Source: Pristiophorus japonicus (Eukaryota). From it: a DNA stretch of 64,000 nucleotides. The stretch's first letter is position 1. Every line of letters begins with the position of its first letter. This document shows positions 1-9,814 of the stretch, in pieces. Under the pieces are notes generated by a model, which worked only from the letters and a program-made list of their open reading frames with translations, made no database searches and was not told where the DNA came from. The DNA is taken from positions 21,142,001 to 21,206,000 of the forward strand of contig NC_091997.1 in the NCBI RefSeq assembly GCF_044704955.1, read 5' to 3'. Made by a program: the position numbers and the translations under genes.

Positions 1-1204
1 ATGTTGAAGGGCGCTAGATAAATGCAAGTCTTTCTATTTTCTTTCTTTTTTCAACATAATGTGTGAAGGTTGAAGAATATTGAGGCTTGAGAATATTAAA
101 ATAATCCGAAGGAAGTGTTAAAGGGTGAAGCATCTAAAGAGTTAACACATTTTACGGTTATCAAAAGGTGTCAGTATTTATGGCCTACAGCTTTTCACTT
201 AGAACAACCAGAACAACACCTTCTAGAGAAAAGAGAAATAATACATATAAACAGTCACAATTCAGCATCGTGATGATAGTCTATCTGAAACCATGCAGTT
301 TTCTAAAGAAAACAGATAACGAACTAAAGCTGTCTTGTCAGCTCTGTTCAGCTGATGTTCACATTAATCATGTCCCCAGTCAAGTGCCAATGCAGCCTGA
401 GAGTGCAAAGGCCAATATTGTAAAGTATTAGATGTAGCAGAATGCAAGATATTGTGCTGTGCCCCTCACTGACCTTAACCCATCATATTTTCTTTAAGAA
501 CATAAGAATTAGGAACAGGAGTAGGCCATCTAGCCCCTCGAGCCTGCTCCGCCATTCAACAAGATCATGGCTGATCTGGCCGTGGACTCAGCTCCACTTA
601 CCCGCCCGCTCCCCATAACCCTTAATTCCCTTATTGGTTAAAAATATATCTATCTGTGATTTGAATACATTCAATGAGCTAGCCTCAACTGCTTCCTTGG
701 GCAGAGAATTTCACAGATTCACAACCCTCTGGGAGAAGAAATTACTTCTCAACTCGGTTTTAAATTGGCTCCCCCGTATTTTGAGGCTGTGCCCCCTAGT
801 TCTAGTCTCCCCTACCAGCGGAAACAACCTCTCTGCCTCTATCTTGTCTATCCCTTTCATTATTTTAAATGTTTCTATGAGATCACCCCTCATCCTTCTG
901 AACTCCAACGAATAAAGACGCAGTCTACTCAATCTATCATCATAAGGTAACCCCCTCATCTCCGGAATCAGCCTAGTGAATCGTCTCTGTACCCGCTCCA
1001 AAGCTAGTATATCCTTCCTTAAGTAAGGTGACCAAAACTGTACGCAGTACTCCAGGTGCGGCCTTACCAATACCCTGTACAGTTGCAGCAGGACCTCCCT
1101 GCTTTTGTACTCCATCCCTCTCGCAATGAAGGCCAACATTCCATTTGCCTTACTGATTACCTGCTGCACCTGCAAACTAACTTTTTGGGATTCATGCACA
1201 AGGA

Positions 1205-2116
1205 GCCGGCGCCTCACAACTTGAGCCGCCTCGGGGAAATCCCCTCCGTGCCTTTCAGTTCCGCGCGGAGGGGTTTCCTGTACGGGCTGCTCCTGCACAC
1301 CCTCAACTTTGCCATCCTCGCCGGCCGTCCGGACACGCCATGGCGTACCATCTTGCCGTCCGGAGGAGGCGGGGGTCCCCGATGGAGGGCACTCTACGCA
1401 GGGGTCCTCCCACTATTCATCGGGGACTTGGCCTGGAGGGTGGTGCACGGAGCAGTGCCGTGCAACAAATTTTTAAGCCGGTTCACGGACTCCCAGGCCG
1501 CCTGCAATTTCTGCGGTCTGGAAGAGTCCGTGTTCCATGTTTTTATGGAATGCACAAGGTTGCAGCCCCTGTTTTATTATTTGAAGGGGCTGCTCCTGAA
1601 ATTCTGGCTGCACTTCAGTCCCACTCTCCTGATCTTTGGGCACCCTGTGCGGAGGGGAGCGGGTAGGTCCGAAGGCCTCCTCGTAGGACTGCTCCTGGGC
1701 ACGGCCAAGGGTGCCATCAGCCGGTCCAGGCAGCGGGCGGTCGAGGGGGTCGTTCAACCTGACTGCCTGCCTCTCTTCCGCTCTTACATCCGGTCCAGGG
1801 TGTCCTTGGAGATGGAGCACGCGGTGTCCACCGGTACGCTCGCGGCCTTCCGCGAGAGGTGGGCACCGGAGGGACTGGAGTGCATCATCACGCCCGGCAA
1901 CCAAATTTTAATTTGATTTTACGTTTTAAAGTTTATTTTGTTTTAATTGCCGGTGCTTTTAGTGTCCCCCTTTCCTTTTATAGGGGGCACTGGAAAAAAG
2001 GAAAATTTGATTTTAGTGCCCAAAAAAAAAAAGGGCCTTGTAAATGTCTGGAGTGTCACCCAGGCCGGGTGGCACCGTTTAATGTTTTTATGTTTTGCAG
2101 GTAAACTCAAAAGAGT
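1205..2116 (+). mobile_element. Tx1-clade non-LTR retrotransposon, 3' module, unit 1
   Basis: C-terminal ORF2 with WRVVHGAV and the zf-RVT knuckle CNFCGLEESVFHVFMEC, stop at 1916, A/T-rich 3' UTR; flanked by TTCATGCACAAGGA at 1191-1204 and 2117-2130. Confidence 0.9.
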
Positions 2117-2119
2117 TTC

Positions 2120-2842
2120 ATGCACAAGGAGCCTGCGCCTCACAACTTGAGCCGCCTCGGGGAAATCCCCTCCATGCCTTTCAGTTCCGCGCGGAGGGGT
2201 TTCCTGTACGGGCTGCTCCTGCACACCCTCAACTTTGCCATCCTCGCCGGCCATCCGGACACGCCATGGCGTACCATCTTGCCGTCCGGAGGAGGCGGGG
2301 GTCCCCGATGGAGGGCACTCTACGCAGGGGTCCTCCCACTATTCATCGGGGACTTGGCCTGGAGGGTGGTGCACGGAGCAGTGCCGTGCAACAAATTTTT
2401 AAGCCGGTTCACGGACTCCCAGGCCGCCTGCAATTTCTGCGGTCTGGAGGAGTCCGTGTTCCATGTTTTTATTGAGTGCACGAAGTTGCAGCCCCTGTTC
2501 CATTATTTGAAGGGGCTGCTCCTGAAATTCTGGCTGCACTTCAGTCCCACTCTCCTGATCTTTGGGCACCCTGTGCGGAGGGGAGCGGGTAGGTCCGAAG
2601 GCCTCCTCGTAGGACTGCTCCTGGGCACGGCCAAGGGTGCCATCAGCCGGTCCAGGCAGCGGGCGGTCGAGGGGGTCGTTCAACCTGACTGCCTGCCTCT
2701 CTTCCGCTCTTACATCCGGTCCAGGGTGTCCTTGGAGATGGAGCACGCGGTGTCCACCGGTACGCTCGCGGCCTTCCGCGAGAGGTGGGCACCGGAGGGA
2801 CTGGAGTGCATCATCACGCCCGGCAACCAAATTTTAATTTGA
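2120..2842 (+). CDS. Open 240-aa frame: Tx1 ORF2 C-terminal zinc-binding region, with the ATG supplied by the duplicated target (equivalent frame at 1194-1916)
   Basis: ORF track MHKEPAPHNL...GNQILI; the ATG lies inside TTC-ATG-CACAAGGA; expression unknown. Confidence 0.5.
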   Translation: MHKEPAPHNLSRLGEIPSMPFSSARRGFLYGLLLHTLNFAILAGHPDTPWRTILPSGGGGGPRWRALYAGVLPLFIGDLAWRVVHGAVPCNKFLSRFTDSQAACNFCGLEESVFHVFIECTKLQPLFHYLKGLLLKFWLHFSPTLLIFGHPVRRGAGRSEGLLVGLLLGTAKGAISRSRQRAVEGVVQPDCLPLFRSYIRSRVSLEMEHAVSTGTLAAFRERWAPEGLECIITPGNQILI

Positions 2843-3066
2843 TTTTACGTTTTAAAGTTTATTTTGTTTTAATTGCCGGTGCTTTTAGTGTCCCCTTCCC
2901 TTTTTTAGGGGGCACTGGAAAATTGTGATTTTAGTGCCCAAAAAAAAAAAACTCAAAAAAAACAAAAAAAGGAAAAAAAAAGGGCCTTGTAAATGTCTGG
3001 TGTGTCACCCAGGTTGGGTGGCACGATTTAATGTTTTATGTTTTTGCAGGTAGACTCTAAAAGAGT
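2131..3066 (+). mobile_element. Tx1-clade non-LTR retrotransposon, 3' module, unit 2
   Basis: Near-identical to unit 1 in the coding part, with indels in the 3' UTR; flanked by TTCATGCACAAGGA at 2117-2130 and 3067-3080. Confidence 0.9.
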
Positions 3067-5698
3067 TTCATGCACAAGGACCCCCAGGTCCCTCTGCACC
3101 GCAGCATGTTGTAATTTCTCCCCATTCAAATAATATTCCCTTTTACTGTTTTTTTTTCCAAGATGGATGACCTCACATTTTCCGACATTGTATTCCATCT
3201 GCCAAACCTTAGCCCATTCGTTTAACCTATCTAAATCTCTTTGCAGCCTCTCTGTGTCCTCTACACAACCCGCTTTCCCACTAATCTTTGTGTCATCTGC
3301 AAATTTTGTTACACTATACTCTGTCCTCTCTTCCAGGTCATCTATGTATATTGTAAACAGTTGTGGTCCCAGCACCGATCCCTGTGCCACACCACTAACC
3401 ACCGATTTCCAACCTGAAAAGGACCCATTTATCCCGACTCTCTGCTTTCTGTTCGCCAGCCAATTCTCGATCCATGCTAATACATTTCCTCTGACTCTGC
3501 GTACCTTTATCTTCTGCAGTAACCTTTTGTGTGGCACCTTATCGAATGTCTTTTGGAAATCTAAATACACCACATCCATCGGTACACCTCTATCCACCAT
3601 GCTCGTCATATCCTCAAAGAACTCCAGTAAATTAGTTAAACATGATTTCCCCGTCATGAATCCATGTTGCGTCTACTTGATTGCACTATTCCTATCTCGA
3701 TGTCCCGCTATTTCTTCCTTAATGATAGCTTCAAGCATTTTCCCCACTACAGATGTTAAACTAACCGGCCAATAGTTACCTGTCTTTTGTCTGCCCCCTT
3801 TTTTAAACAGAGGTGTTACATTAGCTGCTTTCCAATCCACTGGTACCTTCCCAGAATCCAGAGAATTTTGGTAGATTAAAACAAATGCATCTGCTATAAC
3901 TTCCGCCATCGCTTTTCATACCCTGGAATGTATTTCATCAGGACCAGGGGACTTGTCTACCTTGAGTCCCATTAGCCTGTCCAGCACTACTCCCCTCCCT
4001 AGTGATAGTGATTATCTCAAGGTCCTCCCTTCCCACATTCCCGTGACCAGCAATTTTTGGCATGGTTTTTGTGTCTTCCACTGTGAAGACCGAAGCAAAA
4101 TAATTGTTTAAGGTCTCAGCCATTTCCACATTTCAAATTATTAAATCCCCCTTCTCATCTTCTAAGGAACCAACATTTACTTTAGTCACTCTTTTCCGTT
4201 TTATATATCGGTAAAAGCTTTTACTATCCGATTTTATGTTTTGCGCAAGTTTACTTTCGTAATCTATCTTTCCTTTCTTTATTGCTTTCTTAGTCATTCT
4301 TTGCTGTCGTTTAAAATGTTCCCAATCTTCTAGTTTCCCACTAACCTTGGCCACCTTATACGCATTGGTTTTTAATTTGATACTCTCCTTTATTTCCTTG
4401 GTTATCCACGGCTGGTTATCCCTTCTCTTACCGCCCTTCTTTTTCACTGGAATATATTTTTGTTGAGCACTATGAAAGAGCTCCTTAAAAGTCCTCCACT
4501 GTTCCTCAATTGTGCCACCGTTTAGTCTGTGTTCCCAGTATACTTTAGCCAACTCTGCCCTCATCCCACTGTAGTCCCCTTTGTTTAAGCATAGTACGCT
4601 CGTTTGAGACACTACTTCCTCACCCTCAATCTGTATTACAAATTCAACCATACTGTGATCACTCATTCCGAGAGAATCTTTTACTAGGAGATCGTTTATT
4701 AGTCCTGTCTCATTAAAACAGGACCAGATCTAAGATAGCTTGCTCCCTTGTAGGTTCTATAACATACTGTTCTAAGAAACAATCCCGTATGCATTCTATG
4801 AATTCCTCCTCCAGGCTACCCTGTGCGATTTGATTTGACCAATCGATATGTAGGTTAAAATCCCCCATGATTACTGCCGTTCCATTTTCACATGCCTCCA
4901 TTATTCCCCTGATTATTGTCCGCCCCACCGTGAAGTTATTATTTGGGGGCCTATAAACTACGCCCACTAGTGACTTTCTCCCCTTACTATCTCTAATCTC
5001 CACCCACAATGATTCAACATTTTGTTCATTAGAGCCAATATCATCTCTCACAACTGCCCTGATATCATCCTTTATTAACAGAGCTACCCCACCTCCTTTC
5101 CCTTCTTGTCTATCTTTCCGAATTGTCAGATACCCCTGTATGTTTAATTCCCAGTCTTGGCCACCCTGCAACCACGTTTCTGTAATGGCCACCAAATCAT
5201 ACCCATTTGTAATGATTTGTGCCGTCAACTAATTTACTTTATTTCGAATGCTGCGTGCGTTTAGGTAGAGTGTTTTAATACTAGTTTTTAAACCATGATT
5301 TTTAGTTTTGACTCCTCCTCCAGCTCCTTTATATTCATACATATTGTCCCTTCCTATCACCTTGTGGTTTACACTTACCCCAGTGCTACTCTGCTCTGTT
5401 GCCTCCTGCCTTTTGCATTCTTTCTTGGGGTCCGGTTCATCTGAGCTCTCACCCACTCTAACTAGCTCAGAGCCCTCTCCTGGGTTCCGAATACTCCTCG
5501 CATTGAGGCACCGAGCTTTCAGGCTTGTCTCTTTATTACACTTTGACCCTTTAGAATTTTGCTGTACAGTAGCCCTTTTTGTTTTTTGCTTTGTATTTCT
5601 CTGCCCTCCACTTTTACTCATCTCCTTTCTGTCTTTTGCTTCTGTCTCCATTTTGTTTCCCTTTGTCTCCCTACATTGGTTCCCATCCCCCTGCCATA

Positions 5699-6383
5699 TT
5701 AGTTTAACTCCTCCCCAACAGCACTAGCAAACACTCCCCCTAGGACATTGGTTCCGGTCCTGCCCAAGTGCAGACCGTCCGGTTTGTACTGGTCCCACCT
5801 CCCCCAGAACCTGTTCCAATGCCCTACGAATTTGAATCTCTCCCTGCTGCACCATTGTTCAAGCCACGTATTCATCTGTGCTATCCTGCGATTCCTACTC
5901 TGACTAGCATGTGGCACTGGTAGCAATCCCGAGATTACTACTTTTGAGGTCCTACTTTTTAATTTAACTTCTAGCTCCTTAAATTCGTCTCGTAGGACCT
6001 TATCCCTTTTTTTACCTATGTCGTTGGTACCAATGTGCACCACGACAACTGGCTGTTCTCCCTCCCTTTTCAGAATGTCCTGCACTCGCTCGGAGACATC
6101 CTTGACCCTTGCACCAGGGAGGCAACGTACCATCCTGGAGTCTCGGTTGTGGCCGCAGAAACGCCTATCTATTCCCCTTAAAAAAAGAATCCCCTATCAC
6201 TATCGCTCTCCCACTCTTTTTCTTGCCCTCCTGTGTAGCAGAGCCAGCCACGGTACCATGAACTTGGCTGCTGCTGCCCTCCCCTAATGAGTCATCCCCC
6301 TCAACAGTACTGTTTTGCAGGGGGATGACGGCAGGGAACACTGCACTACCTTCCTTGCACTGCTCTTCCTGCTGGTCTTCCAT
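5699..6383 (-). pseudogene. CR1 ORF1 SGNH/GDSL esterase domain (frameshifted, 5' truncated)
   Basis: IVIGDS...CLPGA...VHIGTND...DGLHL motifs across ORFs 6165-6383 and 5699-6133. Confidence 0.9.
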
Positions 6384-6795: not shown

Positions 6796-6865
6796 CTATT
6801 TTGGATAGAATTTTAAAATCAAGTAAGGACATTAGGATCCACAAATTTCCAAATTAACTGGGAAC

Positions 6866-7165
6866 TTTAAACAGCCAAATTAAATTAAAATTCTGTTCCT
6901 GGGGGTGATGATGCACTCCAGTCCCTCCGGTGCCCACCTTTCTTGGAAGGCCACGAGCGTACTGGTGGACACCGCGTGCTCCATCTCCAGGGACACCCTG
7001 GCGCGAATGTAACCACGAAGGAGAGACAGGCAGTTGGGCTGAATGACCCCCTCGACTGCCCGCTGCCTGGACCGGTTAATGGCCACCTTGGCCATGCCCA
7101 GGAGCAGTCTTACAAGGAGGCCCTCCGGCCTGCCAGTTGCCCTCCGCACAGGATGCCCAAAGCTG
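6866..7165 (-). mobile_element. Older Tx1-clade ORF2 C-terminal fragment
   Basis: FGHPVRRATGRPEGLLV...WAPEGLECIITPRNRILI is homologous to units 1 and 2 but more diverged. Confidence 0.85.
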
Positions 7166-8247: not shown

Positions 8248-9814
8248 CGTGATCCACTACACCACTCAGTTCACACATAAAGCTTTTTGTTGAATACATT
8301 TTACTTAGTAATTGCCAAAATAATGGGGGTTTTCCTGGTGTGCATTTTTTTAATTGTTTTCTTTCGGTGCTTAAGGATTTTTTTCTTTAATCTGTTAAAG
8401 CATTCTTGCCTTGGGTATGCAGACTTTGGGTTCTTTTGAATGTTTTCCATTTTGACTCAAATGCTGAAGTGCTCACACCAACCAGAAAATCCGTAACCTT
8501 GGAATGTCCTGGGAATTATCCTTTGCAAATGTGCAGAAAACTACATTAATGTCACTGTCCATCAAGAGGACCTTGAATCATCACACTTGACATGTGTCCC
8601 AACATGCAGGCTCACGCGGATAAAACTTTGAATTACATTGATACAGACAGGCCTGAGATCCGACGATGCTTCAATCTGAAATGGCCTCAGACCCGAAAGT
8701 AATATAATTTATACCGGACTCAAGTTTAAGAGTACTTGAGTCCACTGACTTCTTTAATCCTGACAAGATTAAGGCCTGTAGAAAATAGAACCCAGAGTGG
8801 AAATAAAACATTAATTTTCCTCAGTCGAGAAAGATTGAGGCCAGAAGTCGCTTGATTCCTGTCGTGAGTTTTCAAAACCGTTTTTCTAATAACGCTCTGC
8901 ATAAGACAAAGAATTTCTGTTCTAATCACAATGTATCCCACCAATTCTACTCAAACTGAATAGTTTTTAATCCCCTCCCTCTCTGCTTCGGACATCAAGG
9001 TGGTGACTCTACAAGAAATCATTAAGACAATGGGGTGATCTACTTCTTGAAGAAGTCCGAGGCACATACCTCCTTAGGGATTGGGATGGCAATTGCTTTC
9101 GAGATCATTCTGACAGGTTGAAATTTCTTCTTATCTGGAGATCATTCCAGCACAGATGGCTATACATGCTTCCTGCTATGATACCATTTGTTGACAGACA
9201 GCCAGTAATTTGTCCATACCTAATGGCATGGTTTCAGAAGATAAGTTAAAAGGATGTCGATGTCTGTGCCTAACACTCGCCCTCTGGGAGAAATTAAACC
9301 AAAGATAATTACTTTGAACTTCGTATCAACTACAGTTACGCAGGAAATTAATTATTACTTGCCTTCAGAGAAATATTCTCCATCGCTCACCAGTTTTAGT
9401 ATAAAGAGGTGTTCTCCGCTTGTCACACATTAGATTTTTCACTAAAAATATCTAACAGAGGGTAACACACTGATGTCTCTTACCATCAGTAACTCCTTTC
9501 ATTCACCTTCACAATGGAAAGCATTTTCTTACATATTGTTTTAGGGAATAAAAGCATGACAGGACACAGAAAGACTTTGTTCAAATATTTAGTACCAGGT
9601 TATGTTTCAATTGCTATCTGCTTTTGCCACAGAGTCACTCTGGCTGATACTTAATGAGGGCTTCTGAGCTCCACCAAAAACAATCATTACATTCCAGACT
9701 TTAAGTTGCTGAGATCTCCGCACCTCCCCTCCACCAGTGCCTGCACCCCTCCCCCCACGACTAATCATCATAATTGATGCTTTTGGTGATGGAACTCATC
9801 TAATGCTGCATTAG

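Follow-up and report, generated by a model that had tools for sequence, protein, structure and literature searches.

A Tx1-clade LINE aimed at a 14-bp site in the reverse transcriptase gene of another LINE, with tandem arrays that probably form by copying the 5' end of a resident copy

Insertion of Tx1 elements into other transposons and tandem stacking of R1 elements are both known already. In the text of Kojima 2015 (PMC4494074), Xenopus Tx1L inserts specifically into Tx1D, a non-autonomous piggyBac DNA transposon, and the Tx1 targets described are DNA transposons, long terminal repeat (LTR) elements, U2 and microsatellites; the crocodilian families Tx1-Mar, Tx1-8_Crp, Tx1-4_AMi and Tx1-9_AMi prefer Mariner-N4, LTR elements and Harbinger, and tandem copies of SINEU-3 around a duplication are interpreted as sequential insertions. 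Drosophila R1, in the text of Stage and Eickbush 2009 (PMC2718515), is an APE-type, site-specific element with a 14-bp duplication, and its arrays are explained by insertion at the duplication on the resident's 5' side. The element described here was found in a 64,000-nt window (the whole stretch of DNA analysed) of contig NC_091997.1 (C21) of the 5.9-Gb genome of Pristiophorus japonicus. Judged from its sequence it is a Tx1-clade long interspersed element (LINE), which resembles Tx1L in inserting specifically into another transposon, and R1 in its APE-type endonuclease, site specificity and 14-bp duplication. It differs from R1 in clade and in target (R1 belongs to the R1 clade and inserts into rDNA), and from Tx1L in that its target is the reverse transcriptase (RT) coding region of a LINE, entered in antisense; LINE coding sequence is what is new here as a Tx1 target.

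How the 5' end of LINE cDNA joins its target is an open question. In the present family a fixed target, about 14,500 junctions and source-copy variation of 2-3% allow switch points to be mapped. The tandem arrays probably arise when the left junction of a resident copy is cut again and the new cDNA switches to the 5' end of that neighbour. Such resident-templated completion of integration is likely to be undescribed. That a LINE parasitises another LINE at a conserved RT motif, and that the usual finish at an occupied site is cDNA landing on the resident, is favoured somewhat less strongly.

The exact 14-mer TTCATGCACAAGGA occurs three times in the window, and the three remaining matches to it, each with three mismatches, are at chance level. 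The 14-mers separate two Tx1 units of 912 and 936 bp, each made up of the final 236 codons of the second open reading frame (ORF2) and the 3' untranslated region (UTR); a zf-RVT match in them scores under the Pfam cut-off. The features are as follows.

495..1190, minus strand: 3' part of the host LINE (likely CR1-type), with the ORF2 C-terminus and 3' tail, forming the left target flank; identified by homologues of an uninterrupted copy.
1191..1204, plus strand: target-site duplication copy 1, left junction and putative re-cut site; match to TTCATGCACAAGGA.
1205..2116, plus strand: Tx1 unit 1, 5'-truncated at about 6250, with the ORF2 C-terminus at 1206-1916 and the 3' UTR; probably the later arrival, judging by the order in other arrays (the window array gives a tie).
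2117..2130, plus strand: target-site duplication copy 2, internal junction; match to TTCATGCACAAGGA.
2131..3066, plus strand: Tx1 unit 2, same truncation point, ORF2 C-terminus at 2132-2842; haplotype different from that of unit 1 from +321 on, and a different 3' terminus.
3052..3068, plus strand: predicted stem-loop at the terminus, ACTC-loop-GAGT, with a conserved stem and a loop that differs from copy to copy.
3067..3080, plus strand: target-site duplication copy 3, right junction; match to TTCATGCACAAGGA.
3081..6031, minus strand: upstream part of the host LINE (RT core, endonuclease) with stops and frameshifts, forming the right target flank.

When the sequence was re-examined, the three 14-mers and the unit lengths were as the initial annotation had given them, and the roughly ten coding substitutions it reported between the units were counted as 10, with several UTR changes besides. 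The interrupted minus-strand frame was also read as claimed: its two sides carry ...DLGVLVHE and LVHESQKVSLQV..., and VLVHE is encoded by the 14-mer itself. The other CR1 copies of the window, of subfamily A, have no interruption at the corresponding site, where 8 of 8 read CTGATGTACCATGA-like, again in agreement. Both units start at element position 6248-6251, numbered on the 7,200-nt copy L031. No RNA holding the window dimer is among the matches listed.

Among loci fetched around the 3' terminus, full-length copies measure about 7.2 kb and contain two open reading frames, of 703 and 1,306 aa in L031, both intact in L031, L048, L077 and L098. The ORF1 product (~700 aa) has a CCHC knuckle seen by eye and no Pfam match. 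The ORF2 product (~1,300 aa) of L031 matches Exo_endo_phos and RVT_1 above the Pfam cut-off and zf-RVT below it, and is 49% identical to Xenopus Tx1L ORF2 along its entire length. In a midpoint-rooted RT tree of 32 rows, comprising the element and 31 of 120 listed homologues (one chosen homologue was dropped for short overlap, and there are no labelled L1, Keno, Kibi, Koshi or Dewa rows), the element falls in one seven-row clade with Tx1L and turtle, sturgeon and stingray proteins (support 100/99). The reconstructed full-length element and this tree uphold the Tx1-clade assignment made from the window. Membership of the R1 clade was considered and rejected, as homologues and tree place the element with Tx1L; it is R1-like only in stacking. 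The element has no poly(A) tail and is predicted to end in a small hairpin with a variable loop; 173 of 174 termini, a sample partly selected by terminus, preserve its ACTC/GAGT stem. The window also contains, at 6863-7162 on the minus strand, 300 bp from a related Tx1-like family (85% identical), with a different 3' region and away from the target.

The closest named relatives of both the Tx1 element and the host LINE are in cartilaginous fishes. The best named matches to the host ORF2 are shark, ray and chimaera RT proteins (65-72%), followed by bird, turtle and frog proteins (40-50%); none of the names is labelled CR1. The host is likely a CR1 element, an assignment that presumes its motifs to be CR1 motifs and CR1 to be the main LINE of birds. 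Host copies are 4.0-4.7% apart in pairwise comparison and Tx1 copies 2.2%; the Tx1 burst is therefore likely later than the host burst. The proposal that Tx1 inactivates CR1 was not borne out, since the window host copy has additional stops and frameshifts away from the insertion, the Tx1 burst looks younger and the target group is minor. The reading of subfamily A as an escape variant was rejected: at 10.9% pairwise difference it is the older one, and its distance to the target subfamily is 28.5%. The 120 proteins were also screened for turtle Tx1 gene models fused with CR1, with no match at 36% identity or more. In contigs of three other organisms the empty CR1 site is present, and two or three have Tx1-like pieces with the 3' UTR uncovered.

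The family is almost certainly sequence-specific and aimed at one site in one CR1 subfamily group. One terminus variant has 1,669 exact copies in the genome, of which 1,255 (75%) are followed by the exact 9-mer TTCATGCAC; one type of 3' flank thus dominates genome-wide, against the heterogeneous flanks that the initial annotation had named as refuting its reading. When loci were found by a 3' UTR word excluding the terminus, 26 of 30 continued into the 14-mer with at most two mismatches (three segmental duplicates and several units from the same arrays are counted among the 30). Both fractions, obtained over many independent truncation points, exceed the >20% of flanks of one type that the text of Kojima 2015 (PMC4494074) sets for a target-specific family. 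The many different 5' truncation points and flanks exclude hitch-hiking of a single composite. Genome-wide there are 14,553 terminus-plus-14-mer junctions, 6,088 of them continuing into host sequence, and 19,510 exact empty sites, so that about a fifth to a quarter of sites are filled, by arithmetic on exact patterns of unequal length. Subfamily A has 114,354 copies of its homologous site, and the junction pattern for it has no match. The idea of a CR1 subfamily group as specific target stands; the group is the minor one beside subfamily A (19,510 empty sites against 114,354).

The insertions lie 5' of TTCATGCACAAGGA with a 14-bp duplication at most sites; a minority have shortened or deleted left junctions. 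The duplication is real and target-derived, since variant and off-target sites carry their own local sequence on both sides of the insert, and the ambiguity between element end and 14-mer concerns the first 1-4 nt only. The 14-mer as the element's own 3' end was rejected because empty sites carry a single copy and variant sites duplicate their own sequence. Inserts range from tips of 10-25 nt to full length, and at many filled sites only the last 10-25 nt of the element stand between two full 14-bp duplications (L171, L196, L198, L210, L211, L227, L228 and others). Lying roughly 700 nt from the host 3' end, just past the RT core of the host, the target should be retained in most truncated host copies. 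LINE coding sequence joins the list of Tx1 targets, a safe-haven strategy played on a genome parasite. A minority of insertions are off-target at T|TAAA-type sites (L049, L081, L050, L039), which resemble the L1 endonuclease motif; at L049 an array of at least 12 units occupies such a site, with the canonical 14-mer inside, perhaps from a read-through transcript. An initial biased sample had hinted at a strong preference for occupied sites, which was not upheld: in the first 100 junctions listed there are 74 clusters (60 single, 8 double, 5 triple and one of nine), a moderate excess with a heavy tail.

Tandem arrays were compared in 138 loci with 276 units, after nine segmental duplicates were dropped. 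In 116 adjacent pairs both 5' ends are visible: 51 have the same truncation point, 25 are full length on both sides and 40 differ. Where both units are truncated, neighbours agree in 51 of 69 pairs (27 arrays); between loci the agreement is 38 of 6,651, or 0.6%. In the first 34 Mb of contig C1, which is mostly free of terminus bias, 11 of 34 pairs share the truncation point. About 25 different points occur among the 27 arrays, mostly locus-specific, and 116 distinct combinations of locus and truncation point were found. Plain sequential insertion into the regenerated target, which the initial annotation had invoked, is thus incomplete: it predicts unrelated truncation points, and it holds for the pairs that differ in start but not for those that share it. 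Nine truncation positions recur between loci. One hot spot is the G+C-rich stretch at 6248-6251 (1205 and 2131 in the window), with 131 junctions at 6248 in several lineages; among the first 100 junctions listed, it is repeated in tandem at 15 of 72 loci. Further recurrent points are 6899, 6942, 6760, 6945 and 4972. A non-autonomous subfamily starting at 6248 was rejected, as such copies are 1.8-2.7% apart across loci against a background of 2.2-3.2% and their termini differ. One array, at G000:C1:9709119-9773699 (L174-L179, L031), has nine units, seven of them full length, spanning about 60 kb in one host copy; its junction types come in runs (2, 2, 5). At G000:C1:176000-3250000 each of three filled sites is found 3-5 times with the same junctions, pointing to segmental duplications near the contig start.

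Neighbours with the same truncation point are not simple duplicates of each other. They agree over roughly the first 100-200 nt, but past 300 nt and at the 3' tip they look almost unrelated. Within 50 nt of the junction only 1 of 58 lineage-informative sites differs between them, where 17 would be expected of unrelated copies. The ratio of observed to expected differences is 0.22 below 100 nt (array bootstrap 0.03-0.53), 0.48 at 100-300 nt (0.19-0.76) and 0.80 beyond 300 nt (0.59-1.03), and it is lower near the junction than far from it in 13 of 14 arrays. Alleles common to neighbours, private ones included, are found near the junction only. In the sequence past 300 nt, 3 of 29 pairs have the neighbour as nearest relative (median rank 0.54); the two 3' termini agree exactly in 5 of 46 pairs, where chance gives 0.10. 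The window pair is identical at five common polymorphic sites through +264, and six of the next seven, from +321, differ. In six arrays (segments 67, 89, 95, 103, 136 and 149) an odd left junction recurs at internal junctions: read by eye, the oddities are shortened duplications, mini-inserts and a captured tRNA, and in the truncated arrays the opposite pattern of repetition was not seen by the same reading. Right-most units carry 118 private changes in 41,598 nt and comparison units 71 in 43,923 nt; of 17 complete arrays, 11 have more in the right unit, one has more in the left and five are ties.

These observations are consistent with the following pathway. The APE domain would nick the bottom strand 5' of TTCATGCACAAGGA and so prime reverse transcription. 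At an occupied site the nick may be made again at the left junction, where host sequence and 14-mer are intact, and cDNA templated by the RNA of some other copy would be extended there. Once the cDNA matches the DNA beside the nick, it could invade the resident, or its sister chromatid, and copy from it the 5' end together with the junction; possible second templates are the same molecule, the sister chromatid and local RNA. Arrays would then grow leftwards, the right-most unit being the oldest, and a minority would afterwards expand as plain DNA duplicates. This left-junction model predicts a late switch, repeated left-junction oddities and older right-hand units. The rise from 0.22 through 0.48 to 0.80 is such a late switch, the oddities are repeated in six arrays, and the right-hand units look older in 11 of the 17 complete arrays.

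Several points weigh against the left-junction pathway or limit its reach. It is deduced from the end products left in the genome. One terminus variant served to pick about half of the stretches fetched, all except the window come from contig C1, and pairs inside one array are non-independent. The window pair alone proves little, its truncation point being a hot spot, and it shows a tie in private changes; over all adjacent pairs the age gradient is not significant (42 against 29, p 0.15). The ratio of 0.80 beyond 300 nt leaves neighbours with a residual likeness above that of unrelated copies. Full-length pairs are more alike throughout (ratios 0.2-0.6, termini identical in 6 of 15) and L137-L139 look like DNA duplicates; unequal exchange therefore contributes. 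If the arrays as a whole were tandem DNA duplications, made by unequal exchange or slippage at the 14-bp repeats, with most of each unit later replaced by retrotransposition-driven gene conversion, the common truncation points and junctions would be accounted for, as would near-exact periods in some arrays (938/939, 955/954, 945/945) or identical termini, and if conversion were primed at internal junctions, the left units could seem younger as well. However, two frequent processes are required, nearly every unit must have been converted to near its 5' end, and junctions with only 1-4 nt of duplication, which leave no repeat for unequal exchange, are also repeated (segments 67, 95, 136 and 149). 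Such a history is unlikely.

Independent R1-type insertions with truncation hot spots as the shared starts are very improbable as a full account. Hot spots do exist, and the 40 of 116 pairs that differ in start are fresh insertions, for which this explanation is still right; for the same-truncation pairs it is contradicted by the variety of points among arrays, by the 0.6% agreement between loci and by allele sharing confined near the junction. The same copying might instead occur at the right (3') junction or use a local transcript as second template in place of DNA, and the end product would be the same in most arrays. A dispersed group of 195 full-length copies with different outer flanks (e.g. 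L230-L241) shares one precise left junction, in which 18 nt of host are deleted, GG is added and the duplication is absent. This suggests a source transcript carrying upstream host sequence, as if target sequence on the RNA guided 5' joining, as is proposed in the text on R1A (PMC2718515), where melanogaster-type elements have a fixed upstream deletion with a precise junction. A right-junction cut, however, would place the resident 3' end beside the nick and give an early switch, the opposite of the profile observed, and the repeated oddities are left-junction ones; the two variants together are improbable. That two haplotypes were stacked in assembly, or that one CR1-Tx1 composite was carried about, has next to no probability: among the short contigs listed none bridges the internal junction of the window, and segmental duplicates account for some loci near the start of C1, but arrays of 3-9 units have different termini, locus-and-truncation combinations number 116 and the flanks past the host copies differ.

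If the left-junction mechanism is correct, the resident dictates the 5' boundary of the newcomer, builds mosaics and passes its junction and captured RNAs along the array, and in the arrays the 5'-joining step of target-primed reverse transcription is naturally recorded thousands of times. Identical truncation points would then not prove DNA duplication, which changes the reading of tandem LINE arrays. McGurk and Barbash 2018 (PMC5932611) describe, in the text, non-LTR dimers split by the target duplication and later unequal exchange, as here, and read differing truncations, found in 6 of 10 jockey dimers, as indicating double insertion; in the present family double insertion would mostly give identical truncations, open to misreading as DNA duplication. 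The rule offered, that homology beside the nick sets the 5' boundary, bears on the use of site-specific retrotransposons for gene insertion, and copying from a resident is a route for recombination between element lineages. A LINE target or an inherited truncation point does not appear in the text on crocodilian Tx1 and SINEU-3 (PMC4494074), nor is copying of a resident truncation point mentioned in that on R1 (PMC2718515). Neither a CR1-targeting Tx1 nor inheritance of the truncation point was found in the literature compared; Repbase, Dfam, Fig. 3 and the supplements of Kojima 2015, and Kojima and Fujiwara 2004 lie outside that comparison and may list such a target.

Template switching has left other traces at the 5' junctions, which carry captured tRNA, 5S and U6atac sequences. 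Together with the left junction of L182, where the neighbouring junction and 5' end are present as an inverted copy, these indicate that the RT switches templates readily. In L1, chimeras with endogenous L1 copies and U6-L1 chimeras form when nascent cDNA switches to homologous DNA or to small RNAs; unlike what is proposed here, these are rare side events at non-specific sites and not what usually happens at a regenerated target. The captured RNAs include U6atac and 5S rRNA in series and tRNAs, some with trailer (L071:1931-2142, L099:1959-2031 and 9593-9665, L061:8219-8290, L180:7801-7872). At the left junction of L172, 120 bp comprising flank, 14-mer and the first 62 nt of the unit are duplicated.

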